Shown: positions 14,621-30,039 of the stretch, piece by piece
Numbering within the stretch: position 1 is the stretch's first letter
Layout: every line of letters starts with the position of its first letter
From: Vulcanimicrobiota bacterium
Lineage (GTDB): Bacteria > Vulcanimicrobiota > Xenobia > Xenobiales > JADMJV01
Assembly (NCBI GenBank): GCA_050250895.1
Contig: JBFWNU010000001.1
Location: 2,214,210-2,278,209, forward strand
Direction of reading: 5' to 3'
Length of the DNA stretch: 64,000 nt
Notes under the pieces: generated by a model
The model's input: the letters and a program-made list of their open reading frames with translations, nothing else
What the model was told of the DNA's origin: nothing
The model's database searches: none
Translations under genes and position numbers: made by a program

Positions 14621-16024
14621 ATGCATCACTTTGGCGGGTTGATGCCGCATGGCCAATGCATGCTGTGGAGCCCAGGGCTTTTGGTTCTCCATGTGCTGTC
14701 GGACCTGATCATTGGATTGTCCTACTTCGCTATCCCGCTGTCGCTGTGGGCGGTGGTGCGGCGCGACCGTGAACTGCGAGCGATGCGGCTCTTTATGGCC
14801 TTTATCTTTCTGTGTGGTTTGACTCATCTGTGGAGTATCTACACCACCTGGGTTCCGGCCTACTATCTCGAAGGCGTGTTCAAGGCGGCTACGGCCATCA
14901 TTTCGCTCTGGACGGCGCTGGTCTTTCCCGGCGTCGTCAAGGCCTATGTGAAGAACCAGACCCGCGCCGAACTCGACGCCACCCGCCGTAACCTCGAGGC
15001 GGAGAAGTCGGTGTTGGAGAACGCTCTCGAGGGAGTCATTCGACTCGACGCCGAGGGCAATCTGGCGCAGGTCAACGGAGCCTTCGCTCGCCTGATGAAG
15101 TCGGATGCCGATGTTTTGCGGGGGGTTCCCTGGCGTTCGATCATCGCCCCGGCAGACCACGAACAACTGGCCGAGGTGCTGGCGCGGTCGGGGCGCACCG
15201 AGGCGAGTTTGATGGCCCAACGTCGGGATGGCCGCGAGGTTCCCGTCGATCTGGTGGTGCTGCGCTTAGGCGAGGGATGGGCCATTTTTCTGCGGGATAT
15301 GACGAGACATCGAGCCATGGAGGCCCGACTTGTCGAGCACAATGCGGCCCTGCAGCGATTTGCCTCGACGGCGGCTCACGATCTGCAAGAACCGATCCGC
15401 ATGATCATCGGCTACCTTGAACTGATCGAAAGGCGCTATGCGGACAAGCTCGACGATTCCGGTCACGAGTTCATCCAACTTGCCGTCGACGGCGCCGGAC
15501 GCATGGAGCGGTTGATCCGCGAGCTACTCAAGTTCACTCGACTGGATGCCGAGGTCCCAACCGAGGACTACCCTCTGAACAAACTGGTCCACGAGGCCCT
15601 TCAAGACCTCAAGCGATTGATCGACGAAACCGACGCCAAAGTCGAGGTGGGCGACCTTCCCACCCTCGAGGTTCAGCCCACCCGGCTGCGCCAGGTCTTT
15701 CAAAATTTGCTCGGCAATGCGCTGAAGTTCCGTCGACCCGACCAGGCCACGATTGTTCGGGTATGGGCCGAGCGCACGGATGAGGGCTGGGGCGTGTCGG
15801 TGCAGGATAACGGTATCGGTATTCCTGCCGACTGCATCGGCAAGGTCTTTCAGCCCCTATTTCGGGGGCACTCCAGCGAGGATTACAGCGGCACCGGCCT
15901 GGGTTTAGCGACCTGCAAGCAGATCGTGGCGGCCCACGGCGGTAAGATCTGGGCCGAATCACCCCCCGAAGGGGGTACCGTCATTCGCTTTAACCTACCT
16001 GATATCGCTCCACGATCGACTTGA
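14621..16024 (+). CDS. Membrane sensor histidine kinase with PAS domain
   Basis: The N-terminus has ~4 TM helices, followed by PAS, then HisKA (FASTAAHDLQEP) and HATPase_c (GNALKF; GTGLGLATCK). Confidence 0.7.
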   Translation: MHHFGGLMPHGQCMLWSPGLLVLHVLSDLIIGLSYFAIPLSLWAVVRRDRELRAMRLFMAFIFLCGLTHLWSIYTTWVPAYYLEGVFKAATAIISLWTALVFPGVVKAYVKNQTRAELDATRRNLEAEKSVLENALEGVIRLDAEGNLAQVNGAFARLMKSDADVLRGVPWRSIIAPADHEQLAEVLARSGRTEASLMAQRRDGREVPVDLVVLRLGEGWAIFLRDMTRHRAMEARLVEHNAALQRFASTAAHDLQEPIRMIIGYLELIERRYADKLDDSGHEFIQLAVDGAGRMERLIRELLKFTRLDAEVPTEDYPLNKLVHEALQDLKRLIDETDAKVEVGDLPTLEVQPTRLRQVFQNLLGNALKFRRPDQATIVRVWAERTDEGWGVSVQDNGIGIPADCIGKVFQPLFRGHSSEDYSGTGLGLATCKQIVAAHGGKIWAESPPEGGTVIRFNLPDIAPRST

Positions 16025-17603
16025 GTTCTTCTCCCAGCCCGGTCAGGTCACGAGCGGAAGATTCCAACATGCTCGAGGCCTGCACCGCCTGTTCGGCGGC
16101 GGCGTTGATCTCTTGCATACCCATCGAGATCTGCTCGATACCCACCTGCTGCTCCCCCGTCCCGGCGGCGATGATCTGAAAGGCCTCGATACTCTCGCGC
16201 AGGGCCGTGCCCAGCGAGTCCATGGTTACAGTGGCGTCCTCTCCCTGCGTGCGGGCCGTATCCACCAATTTTACCACCTCCTCGGTCAAGAGTACGGAGC
16301 GATTGATGCCTTTGCGGATGTCGCCCAGGATGGCTTGCACCCGCAGGGTAGCCTCGGCGCTGCGTTCGGCTAGCGACTTCATCTCGCCGGCCACCACTCC
16401 GAATCGATTCCCCTCGGCTCCTACCGATACGGCTTCAATGGCCGCGTTGAGGGCCAGCAGATTGGATTGTTCGGCCACTCCGCGGACCGTTTCGATGACA
16501 TCGCCGATGGCCTGAGTGCGTTCGCTGAGGCTCATGACGTTTTCGGCGACCTTCTCTACCTGAGCCCCGATGCGCTCCAGGCTCCCGGCCACATCCTTTA
16601 CCGCCTCGATGCCGCTCTCGCCGGCCTCGACCGTGCGTTCCCCCGAGGTGGCCACGCTATTGGCGCGCTGGCTGACTTGCTGGCTGTTGCGGGTCATCTC
16701 TTCCATGGTGGAAGTGATCTCTTGAACGGTGGTGGCGCGCTCTTGCAGAGAAACAGCTTGTTGTTCGGCCGAGGCTAGAATGGCGGCCGAATGCGAGTTG
16801 AGCTCCTTGGTCGTGTCTCGCATTCGAACCACCATCTGACGCAGACCGGAGGCCATGGTATCGAAGGCATTGGTGAGCAGCGAGAGTTCGTCTCGCCCGA
16901 TGACTCCGACCTCGGCCGTGCGTAAATCACCCTCCGAGATGCGGGTGGCCGAGCGCGTCAACACGGCCAACGGCTGCGTGATGCTGTGCCCCAAGCCCAG
17001 CTGAATGGCGGTCAGCAGCAAAAAGACCACGGTGAGGCTCAAGGCCAATCTGGTGAGCGCTAGACCAAGACGCTCCTCGAGCTGGGCCGAGGTGTCGGTG
17101 GCCAGTTGATTGTAGGCCTGGTTGAGAGTCTGAAGGGCGGCTGCCGCTGGGCGGTCGTCAAAGCGAACCTGCTGGTCGATGGCCGTCACGTCGGTTCCCG
17201 CCGAGCGCAGGCGGACGACCAGTTCCAGTTTGTCGAGATGGTTTTCTACCATGTCTTCGATGACGGCCAGAGCCCCTAACTCGTCAGGAGTAATTCCGGC
17301 CAACTTCTTATAGCTCTCGAGGATCTGGCGTGCGTCTTCGAGCTTTTGGCGGGCCTCTCGTTCGTCGCGGGACTCGCCTCGCAAAAGATAGTTCTTGAAG
17401 AGGTGGATGGCGCCACCGTAGCCGAGGCTGGCGCGAATGTCTTCGAGCAGGACCTGCCTTTGGACGACCTGCTCGCGATAGAAATCCCAACGGGTCTCGA
17501 CCTTCTTGAGGGCCTGCCATTGCAGACCTGCGATACAGGCGAAGGCGGCCAGGTTGAGGATCAGGCTCAGCAGCAGCTTGTTCTTGATCGATAGATTTCG
17601 CAT
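15990..17603 (-). CDS. Methyl-accepting chemotaxis protein (4HB sensor + HAMP + MCP signalling domain)
   Basis: N-terminal TM, a periplasmic helical sensor region, a second TM, HAMP, then the highly conserved signalling hairpin (LLALNAAIEAVSVGAEGNRFGVVAGEMKSLAERS). Confidence 0.8.
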   Translation of the reverse strand: MRNLSIKNKLLLSLILNLAAFACIAGLQWQALKKVETRWDFYREQVVQRQVLLEDIRASLGYGGAIHLFKNYLLRGESRDEREARQKLEDARQILESYKKLAGITPDELGALAVIEDMVENHLDKLELVVRLRSAGTDVTAIDQQVRFDDRPAAAALQTLNQAYNQLATDTSAQLEERLGLALTRLALSLTVVFLLLTAIQLGLGHSITQPLAVLTRSATRISEGDLRTAEVGVIGRDELSLLTNAFDTMASGLRQMVVRMRDTTKELNSHSAAILASAEQQAVSLQERATTVQEITSTMEEMTRNSQQVSQRANSVATSGERTVEAGESGIEAVKDVAGSLERIGAQVEKVAENVMSLSERTQAIGDVIETVRGVAEQSNLLALNAAIEAVSVGAEGNRFGVVAGEMKSLAERSAEATLRVQAILGDIRKGINRSVLLTEEVVKLVDTARTQGEDATVTMDSLGTALRESIEAFQIIAAGTGEQQVGIEQISMGMQEINAAAEQAVQASSMLESSARDLTGLGEELKSIVERYQVG

Positions 17604-17611
17604 GGCGCTCC

Positions 17612-28959: not shown

Positions 28960-28966
28960 GGTTGCG

Positions 28967-30039
28967 TTACCGGTGAAGCTGCTTGGTCACGATGCCGTCG
29001 GCGAAGGCCTGCCGGATCGACAGGATGTCGGGGAGGGCTCGAAAGAAAGCGTCCACTACCTCAGGGTCGAAGTGGCTGCCGCTGCAACGGCGGATTTCTT
29101 CCAGGGCGTCTTCGACGGCCCAGGCTTGTTTGTAAGGGCGCTCCGAGACGAGCGCGTCGAAGACATCCGCGATGGCCACGATGCGACCTTCCAGTGGAAT
29201 CCCAGTGCCTTCCAGTCCCTCCGGATACCCCTGACCGTTCCATTTCTCGTGATGGGTGCGGGCGATGGTTTCGGCCATCTGCAACACCGGAGAGTTGCTG
29301 CCCGAGAGCAGATCGGCTCCGATACGGCAGTGGGACTTCATGAGCGTCCACTCCTCGGCCGTCAGTTTGCCGGGCTTGAGCAGGATGTTATCGGGGATGC
29401 CGATTTTTCCAATATCGTGCATCGGGCTGGCCCACAGCAGCCGATCGCAGTGCTCTTCACTCAAGCCCAGTTGGATGGCCACCAGTTCGCAATACTGGCT
29501 CATTCGCAAAATGTGGTTGCCCGTGTCGTCGTCGCGGTACTCGGCGGCCGCCATCAATCGCTGGATGATCTCTAGTTTGCTCTCTTCCACCTCGCGTGTA
29601 CGCAGGCGGACCAGTTCGTCAAGTTCCTGGTTGTGGCGTTTGAGGGCGGCGTGGAGCCGGCGCACCTCGAGATAACCCTTGACCCGCGCGGTGAGTTCCA
29701 CCGGATCGCACGGCTTGGTCAAAAAGTCCCGAGCCCCCCCTCGAGGGCATGCAGTCGAGTGTCGCGGCCCCCTTCCCCAGTGAGCACAATGACCGGCACG
29801 GCTATTAGTCGCTCTGCATCCTGCTCGCGCAGCGCGTCGAGAATCTCGAATCCAGATACGCCGGGCATGTTGATGTCGAGAATGACCAGATCCGGCTCCA
29901 GATCGGCAAAAACATCAAGGGCTCGAGTGGGGTCGCTGCAGGTGGTGACGTGGCTAAGGCCCGCGCGCGACAGTTGCCGGACCAGAACGTTACAGACGGC
30001 TTCCTCATCATCGATAATGAGGATCTTGGCGTGCTCCAT
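28967..30039 (-). pseudogene. REC-HD-GYP response regulator (RpfG-like) split by a -1 frameshift in a C7 homopolymer
   Basis: ORF 29719..30039 is a receiver ending ...HALEGGLGTF*. ORF 28967..29722 begins MTKPCDPVEL..., which is the receiver C-terminus, and continues into HD-GYP (HDIGKIGIP ... WNGQGYP). Adding one base to the run of 7 C (plus strand 29734-29740) restores ...LEGGARDFLTKPCDPVELTARV... in frame. Confidence 0.6.

Follow-up and report, generated by a model that had tools for sequence, protein, structure and literature searches.

Chemosensory gene clusters of the alternative cellular function (ACF) class are common, and for very few of them is the output known. What such a cluster may control is the question raised by a run of eleven genes on the minus strand of a 64-kb stretch of an Eremiobacterota (Vulcanimicrobiota) genome, hereafter the window. 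The run joins a chemosensory core to several histidine kinases (HK) and to a response regulator with an HD-GYP domain, a predicted phosphodiesterase of cyclic di-GMP (c-di-GMP) or a related cyclic dinucleotide. To our knowledge, the characterised connections of Che systems to c-di-GMP are of the cyclase type (Wsp) only. The eleven genes, designated G1 to G11 in the 5' to 3' direction, unite two conserved modules. Comparison with known systems somewhat favors a multi-kinase relay, similar to the Che3 system of Rhodospirillum centenum, that would end in HD-GYP activity, over a direct step of the Wsp style.

Layout and class of the operon

Gene calls were made from the open reading frame (ORF) listing with the most plausible start codons, and domains were assigned by Pfam scans. 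The two agree on an unbroken, tightly packed run of eleven minus-strand genes, 14 kb in length, with the domain content listed in a preliminary description of this DNA (Table 1). From G1 to G11, the ten junctions are a gap of 7 nt, three 4-nt overlaps (TTGA, GTGA and ATGA), an 11-nt overlap, two more 4-nt overlaps (both ATGA), overlaps of 8 and 4 nt, and a gap of 8 nt. The spacing never exceeds 8 nt across the 14 kb. Eight of the ten junctions are overlapping, in keeping with the stops and starts overlapping by 4-8 nt that had been described, but one overlap is longer, where the ATG of G6 at 24251 lies within cheR (G5), and two junctions are short gaps. The TTGA is shared by the G2 stop and the TTG start of G3. 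The GTGA, in which the G3 stop overlaps the G4 start, indicates that the two modules described below are translationally coupled in the window. The ATG of G11 is preceded by an AAGGAG Shine-Dalgarno sequence.

In consensus scans, promoter-like and terminator-like matches inside the block showed no excess over the shuffled expectation. Being at the chance level, they neither split the operon nor prove it, and the block was not found to be divided by internal promoters or terminators. Only one terminator is strong (30762-30743), and it is located outside the block, on its upstream side, following a vault-protein-like gene. As far as can be judged from the sequence, the block is a real, single operon-like unit. 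A horizontal-transfer island was considered and rejected, the GC content of the block (0.60-0.65) being equal to that of its flanks.

Table 1. Genes of the operon, followed by other signaling and pilus genes of the window
Feature	Product	Position	Strand	Assignment and remarks
G1	REC-HD-GYP	30039-28967	-	Pfam; as given, REC ORF 30039-29719 and HD_5/HD ORF 29722-28967
G2	Double hybrid kinase, REC-HisKA/HATPase-pseudo-REC-HisKA/HATPase, 828 aa	28959-26473	-	Pfam
G3	Single-domain REC	26476-26063	-	Pfam; TTG start
G4	CheW-like coupling protein	26066-25572	-	Pfam CheW 2e-13; WspB position
G5	CheR with C-terminal extension	25575-24241	-	Pfam CheR 4e-41
G6	CheW	24251-23763	-	Pfam CheW 3e-17; WspD position
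G7	CheA-REC (Hpt, kinase core, CheW-like P5, C-terminal REC), 694 aa	23766-21682	-	Pfam
G8	REC-CheB methylesterase	21685-20654	-	Pfam CheB_methylest 6e-49
G9	REC-degenerate REC-HisKA/HATPase kinase	20661-19048	-	Pfam
G10	REC-PAS-HK kinase	19051-17612	-	Pfam
G11	HAMP-MCP transmembrane chemoreceptor	17603-15990	-	Pfam HAMP and MCPsignal
Flanking kinase	Histidine kinase, HisKA/HATPase	11585-13072	-	Pfam
Second phosphodiesterase	Pseudo-REC-REC-HD-GYP	13006-14577	+	Pfam; REC1 degenerate, REC2 intact
PilZ protein	Tandem PilZ	47738-48574		
GGDEF protein	GGDEF-domain protein	5861-6904		DDETF replaces GGDEF
PilB	PilB with MshEN domain	58446-60179	+	Pfam MshEN

By its gene content and order and by a length count of its receptor, rather than by class-specific hidden Markov models (HMMs), the operon is an ACF-class chemosensory cluster. 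A complete core of MCP, CheW, CheA, CheR and CheB is found in one cluster with the multidomain response regulators REC-HD-GYP, REC-HK-REC-HK, REC-HK and REC-PAS-HK. Multidomain response regulators are nearly absent from the flagellar classes, and clusters with CheR-TPR, about 40% of whose response regulators are REC-HK proteins, are assigned to ACF (PMC3447774). Neither CheC, CheD, CheX, CheZ or CheV domains nor flagellar genes were detected by Pfam in the block or in the scanned ORFs over most of the window. The proposal of a non-flagellar system of the ACF/Wsp type is borne out by these absences together with the two CheW genes around a CheR-TPR-like gene, CheA-REC, CheB and a receptor of 40H length.

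In the NCBIfam scan, no component of the operon reached the curated cut-off of a specific named family, and the scan gave no aid to classification; G8, for instance, scores 251 bits against the 342 of a CheB subfamily. The CheW match of G4 covers only positions 2-88 of the 138 of the profile. G5 carries a C-terminal extension of about 170 residues, which matches TPR_16 with an E-value of 1.5e-4 and 22.6 bits, below the curated cut-off of 32.7. The weak PDB matches of this extension are nearly all to TPR proteins, the orthologues show faint TPR matches, and the extension is probably a short TPR. G7 has an identical (100%) counterpart in an NCBI 'Vulcanimicrobiota bacterium' metagenome-assembled genome (MAG). 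It contains a single Hpt domain with its histidine H48 in HTLKGAARA, no P2 domain detectable by Pfam and an intact C-terminal REC. G11 is comprised of two transmembrane segments, a periplasmic region of about 150 residues without a Pfam match, HAMP and the signaling domain. The hairpin tip of the latter is at E397, and its arms of 141 and 140 residues correspond to about 40 heptads, which is a length count only and not an HMM class call.

The 3' end of G11 is overlapped by 35 nt by a convergent histidine kinase gene (14621-16024, plus strand), which has an ethylene-receptor-type ETR1_N N-terminus (Pfam E=1.7e-25) followed by PAS and the kinase core, and which keeps the Cys-x3-His copper-ligand pair (FIFLCGLTHL). 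No full-length orthologue of this kinase was found beside related che clusters, and the other loci match the kinase core only.

The REC-HD-GYP protein and the kinases

In the window, G1 is interrupted. It is read as a 106-aa REC ORF, with its stop at 29719, and a 251-aa HD-GYP ORF in another frame, while the intact form has 357 aa. The break is at a run of seven Gs (C7 on the plus strand) at 29734-29740, and one added G restores the reading LEGGARDFLTKPCDPVEL, with which receiver domains canonically end. At this site, a Logan assembly made independently for the same organism (run SRR27751815, comparison locus L086; such L-numbers denote comparison loci throughout) has G8, and it encodes an intact 357-aa REC-HD-GYP protein. 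The two sequences are 99.995% identical over 21,393 bp, and the G7/G8 gap is their sole difference. In L001, the CheA of which is 86% identical, the G1 orthologue is also intact, with GGT GGA GCT at the site and no homopolymer. Since L086 differs at that base only and encodes the intact protein, the split is most likely an assembly (homopolymer-length) error or a rare variant of a gene that is itself real. The same one-base discrepancy accounts for the truncated, 251-aa HD-GYP product (P0122) in the NCBI annotation of the genome. Phase variation or a programmed frameshift at the G-run was set aside as the leading idea in view of the in-frame G8 of the independent assembly and the lack of a homopolymer in L001; the population may be heterogeneous at the run.

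G1 matches Response_reg (3e-21) and HD_5 (4e-35) in Pfam, and its HD-GYP domain matches PmGH (PDB 4mcw) with E=1e-56. In the alignment to PmGH, NH, HDIGK, SH, HHEKWNGQGYP and DVFDAL are present, the Asp of the 'DGxGYP' stretch being replaced by Asn. The HD dyad, the HHE and GYP motifs and the other metal-ligand His and Asp positions are kept both in G1 and in the second phosphodiesterase of Table 1, so the catalytic residues are retained in both HD-GYP proteins. The G1 receiver, aligned to CheY, has D12, D13, D57, T87 and K109. With a REC, an HD-GYP domain and all the motif residues, G1 is similar to the RpfG-type proteins PmGH and PA4781 (4r8z). Its family is very common (50-68% identity between phyla). 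With the NCBIfam NosR-family model G1 scores 178 bits, below the cut-off of 400 bits, which places it outside this named subfamily. Unlike in the RpfG type, its likely partners are Che-linked hybrid kinases and not an RpfC-type sensor.

The preliminary description had counted three additional histidine kinases. This is correct for the number of proteins (G2, G9 and G10), but there are four kinase cores among them. All H-boxes of the operon kinases are present, those of G2 being HDFNNML (H158) and SHDLQEPLR (H612), and that of G10 HHLQEPLR. When the receivers are aligned to CheY, the phospho-acceptor sites are intact in G1, the first REC of G2, G3, the REC of CheA, CheB, the first REC of G9, and G10. 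The second REC of G2 has Ala at the position of the phospho-acceptor Asp57. In G9, the middle domain can be aligned with the receivers, yet it is without T87 and K109 and is degenerate. G3 has all the phospho-site residues and is of the phytochrome-partner, Rcp1/RcpA type (PDB 1k68 RcpA, 8e-21; 1i3c Rcp1, 7e-20). The HxLQEPLR H-box, shared by G10 and the second kinase core of G2, is typical of Cph1-type kinases, which pair with Rcp1-type receivers. G3 is probably the partner of these HxLQEPLR-type cores.

Conserved modules and the proposed route to the HD-GYP protein

The operon resembles the Pseudomonas Wsp system (WspA-F, WspR) in its ACF class and in the order CheW, CheR with a probable TPR, CheW, CheA-REC, CheB. 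The Wsp output acts on c-di-GMP (PMC8846402), and WspA is a 40H transmembrane receptor (PMC2577667). WspR, however, is a REC-GGDEF cyclase, whereas the predicted output here is a degradative HD-GYP protein, and no GGDEF domain was found in the block by Pfam. The receptor gene is first in Wsp and last in the operon, which also has the three extra kinase proteins. In a direct mirror of Wsp, CheA-REC would phosphorylate the REC-HD-GYP protein as WspE does WspR, a single step would lead from array activation to a lower c-di-GMP level, and the additional kinases would serve as side inputs. The Wsp gene order of the core, the 40H length of the receptor, the intact receiver and catalytic motifs of G1 and its apparent co-transcription with the core, in the window and in L001, are consistent with this arrangement. 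What speaks against it comes from the gene neighborhoods of related systems and from the biochemistry of one relative.

The neighborhoods were surveyed from the CheA side, in 80 genome loci with CheA-REC relatives, counting HD-GYP neighbors within 10 kb, and from the side of the HD-GYP protein (L087-L090), counting che neighbors within 10 kb. In L002-L005, where CheA is 40% identical, the order REC, CheW, CheR, CheW, CheA-REC, CheB, REC-REC-HK, REC-PAS-HK, MCP is kept. REC-HK directly after cheB is found in at least 12 of the 80 loci, belonging to many phyla, and the Wsp-like order followed by REC-HK is common; a REC-GGDEF gene after the core, as in Wsp, is found in two (L012 and L025). The conserved output slot after CheB is occupied in relatives by REC-HK and not by the HD-GYP gene. 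The latter travels with kinases of its own and can occur without nearby che genes. In addition, in the one relative with such a layout that has been tested biochemically, CheA3 did not phosphorylate the terminal receiver (PMC3868531). Direct transfer from CheA to the output, as in Wsp, is unlikely. The likeness to a 'Wsp but degradative' pathway that had been drawn earlier is not supported in this direct form, since the conserved partners of the HD-GYP protein are the double hybrid kinase, the single REC and, elsewhere, a divergently transcribed kinase, and the three genes G1-G3 also occur without che genes within 10 kb.

The gene orders point to two conserved modules. One is comprised of the Che core, REC-pseudoREC-HK, REC-PAS-HK and MCP, and the other is a trio of REC-HD-GYP, REC-HK-pseudoREC-HK and the Rcp1-type REC. 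They are often adjacent in shuffled order yet separable, and they are fused in the window. In L002-L005, the core block is followed by a kinase, REC-HD-GYP, REC and REC-HK-REC-HK in mixed orientations. In L088, the trio comes after the Che core, on the same strand and in the order REC-HD-GYP, double kinase, REC, while L090 combines these parts in yet another way. Full-length orthologues of all eleven window proteins, with 35-67% identity, are present in both L002 and L088. Those of G2 adjoin the REC-HD-GYP gene in L001, L087, L088 and L002, those of G9 are full-length and lie directly after cheB in L002, L088, L041 and L067, and those of G10 are found in L002, L088, L090 and L041. The trio and the core are adjacent in four arrangements (window/L001, L088, L002 and L090), among lineages with CheA only 28-40% identical. 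Despite the rearrangements, the REC-HD-GYP gene adjoins the same Che core in other lineages, and a functional coupling of the modules is supported by their adjacency, in varying order, in at least three lineages besides this one.

Several observations weigh against such a coupling, or against its proposed output. The trio is found in L087, which is another Vulcanimicrobiota MAG, and the REC-HD-GYP/REC pair in L089, in both cases with no che genes within 10 kb, which implies that the phosphodiesterase module can work independently of a neighboring Che core. In these two loci a divergent kinase lies beside the REC-HD-GYP gene, and this kinase could be the true partner of the REC-HD-GYP protein. 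Signaling genes often cluster without direct wiring. G1 is frameshifted in the window sequence itself. Finally, some HD-GYP domains act on cGAMP in place of c-di-GMP, and besides the c-di-GMP enzymes 4mcw and 4r8z, G1 also matches the 3'3'-cGAMP phosphodiesterase 5z7c, so that either could be its substrate; the earlier assignment of a c-di-GMP phosphodiesterase to the operon holds for the intact HD-GYP motifs, but not for the choice of c-di-GMP over cGAMP.

Another possibility, with which the solitary trio and pair agree, is that two independent systems have been fused. The Che core with G9 and G10 would be a Che3-like pathway with its output elsewhere, for example in a transcription factor or the single REC, while G1-G2-G3 would be a separate two-component phosphodiesterase module that has an input of its own and is only co-expressed. 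The dedicated divergent kinase conserved beside the REC-HD-GYP gene agrees with such independence, as does the scarcity of the association outside this lineage, where only three of the 80 loci, two of the Nitrospira group and one of Geobacter (L028, L043 and L068), have an HD-GYP gene within 10 kb. Mere co-expression is nevertheless improbable, given that the adjacency survives at least four rearrangements among such distant CheA proteins and that the GTGA overlap couples the translation of G3 and G4 in the window.

The divergent kinase has a counterpart next to the operon. The flanking kinase of Table 1 and the second phosphodiesterase form a divergent pair, the starts of which overlap by about 67 nt. 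Full-length orthologues of this kinase (34-40% identity) are the divergent neighbors of the REC-HD-GYP gene in L087, L089, L090 and L002. The recurrence of one kinase family divergent to REC-HD-GYP in four other lineages suggests a conserved cognate pair, and the flanking kinase is probably part of the same network. A metagenome scan with the G2 alignment returned almost only generic HisKA-HATPase-REC kinases and no locus with both HD-GYP and che genes; three extra loci pair a kinase with a REC-HD-GYP gene.

Among systems dissected by experiment, the nearest analogue is Che3 of R. centenum, which acts in cyst development. It is non-flagellar and contains two CheW, CheR, CheB, MCP and CheA-REC, a receiver-kinase with one real and one degenerate REC (here G9) and a single-domain terminal receiver (here G3). 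CheA3 transfers phosphate to the first REC of CheS3, and only CheS3 phosphorylates CheY3 (PMC3868531). CheS3 is a REC-degenerate REC-PAS-HK protein with A191 in its second REC (PMC3868531), and the degenerate second receivers of G9 and G2 mirror this A191 domain. The closest named CheA homologues of G7 are from Rhodospirillales (Magnetospirillum and Azospirillum), with 35-38% identity. The differences are that the features of CheS3 are split here between G9 (REC-pseudoREC-HK) and G10 (REC-PAS-HK), and that the operon adds the double hybrid kinase and the enzymatic REC-HD-GYP output, its single REC being of the Rcp1 type. The kinase core of CheS3 is of the HWE type, and the H-boxes of G9 and G10 are of the HisKA type. 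The host phylum also differs.

Parts of this inventory have been catalogued before. REC-HK, REC-PAS-HK and REC-HD(c) regulators are already listed for CheR-TPR/ACF clusters (PMC3447774). Geobacter CheR-TPR clusters have the same REC-HK and REC-PAS-HK pair, and the Desulfatibacillum alkenivorans cluster has a REC-HDc response regulator (both in Table S2 of PMC3447774). Each of the alpha-group che clusters of Geobacter contains an HD-domain gene (PMC2577667). In the catalogued ACF clusters of Deltaproteobacteria and in L028, L043 and L068, however, the HD-GYP and kinase-pair features are never joined with the double hybrid kinase in one coupled operon. The literature searched contained no characterised Che/HD-GYP system, only mentions at the level of catalogues. 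The operon varies a class that has already been catalogued and does not represent a new kind of system.

The relay is favored over the direct step since G9, with its real first and degenerate second REC, and G10 together reproduce the logic of CheS3, and since G9-type genes hold the position after cheB. From what is general in the Che family, the 40H receptor G11, the couplers G4 and G6 and the CheA-REC protein G7 would form the sensing array, and CheR (G5) and CheB (G8) would provide methylation-based adaptation. By analogy with Che3, phosphorylated CheA would act not on a flagellar CheY but on its own receiver, which would serve as a phosphate sink, and on the N-terminal receivers of G9, G10 and probably G2, switching the activity of these kinases. 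The kinases would in turn set the phosphorylation of two terminal receivers, G3 and G1, as the gene neighborhoods and the matching of H-box and receiver families suggest. Phosphorylation of G1 would then alter the hydrolysis of c-di-GMP or a related cyclic dinucleotide. On the whole, a surface or chemical signal, adapted by methylation, would be passed through a branched multi-kinase relay to change second-messenger degradation. The target is likely to be a surface behavior, such as pili, matrix production or development, in view of the absence of flagella from the only cultured member of the phylum.

A bolder form of this proposal is possible, though doubtful. The eleven-gene set would be a conserved and previously undescribed machine, in which an adapted receptor array is connected to degradation by a relay of four kinase cores with two pseudo-receivers, and it would be a degradative counterpart of Wsp governing surface or pilus behavior in Eremiobacterota and a few other lineages.

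Type IV pili, neighboring genes and significance

Vulcanimicrobium alpinus, the sole cultured member of the phylum, has no flagella and is motile, and phototactic, by type IV pili (PMC9758169). This lifestyle fits a non-flagellar role of the operon without identifying its target. A cluster that steers pilus motility in phototaxis or chemotaxis, as Pil-Chp or cyanobacterial Tax systems do, would also agree with pilB, pilT and pilC in the window and with the phytochrome-partner type of G3. The operon, however, is not of the Tfp class: its CheA has one Hpt and is not of the multi-Hpt ChpA type, no CheA of the latter kind is encoded in the block, and a CheR with a probable TPR and multidomain response regulators are present. 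A distance of 28 kb, occupied by unrelated genes, separates the operon from the pil genes. Pilus taxis is thus a very improbable function.

The same distances bear on a wider claim, that the window encodes a coherent circuit of c-di-GMP and type IV pili. All the neighbors named in it, REC-REC-HD-GYP, tandem PilZ, degenerate GGDEF and PilB with MshEN, are present. The PilZ, GGDEF and pil genes, however, are at distances of 9-28 kb from the operon, with unrelated housekeeping genes between (for peptidases, a GTPase, lipid and cell-wall functions and others), and their sole tie is the shared window, so the circuit as such is not supported. The first 24-residue MshEN motif of PilB reads DLGKLLIEEGLV... 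and not RLGxx...; with the canonical Arg absent, the binding of c-di-GMP by PilB is uncertain. An Rfam scan of the window revealed no c-di-GMP riboswitch or other regulatory RNA, and one tRNA only. This tRNA gene (6987-7068, plus strand) is inside the 5' part of a long ORF (6911-7993), so that the start of the 5'-3' exonuclease gene has to lie farther downstream, beyond the tRNA.

Further features of the window were noted. Just upstream of the operon, an 810-aa protein with major-vault-protein domains (MVP_shoulder, 1.7e-26, and Vault_3) is encoded on the minus strand at 30785-33217, and this gene and that of a 199-aa membrane protein (30133-30732) are conserved together in L001. Between the vault-protein-like gene and a FabH-like gene, a dense tandem-repeat array (33295-33930) is built from 27-nt units, which are themselves grouped into a 187-nt higher-order unit repeated about three times (93% matches); it has no spacers and is therefore not CRISPR-like. 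On the plus strand, adjacent or overlapping ORFs at 1438-4383 contain DUF4956, a VTC domain and a CotH kinase domain and could form a cassette related to polyphosphate or to CotH kinases.

The operon is among the few signaling systems described for Eremiobacterota, a widespread phylum with one cultured, pilus-motile member. A smaller, practical point is the truncation of the HD-GYP protein in the public annotation. If the proposed relay is true, a Che core wired to an HD-GYP protein via hybrid kinases would offer a tractable case of receptor arrays controlling the breakdown of a second messenger, and it would also illustrate the routing of phosphate between several kinases and pseudo-receivers.

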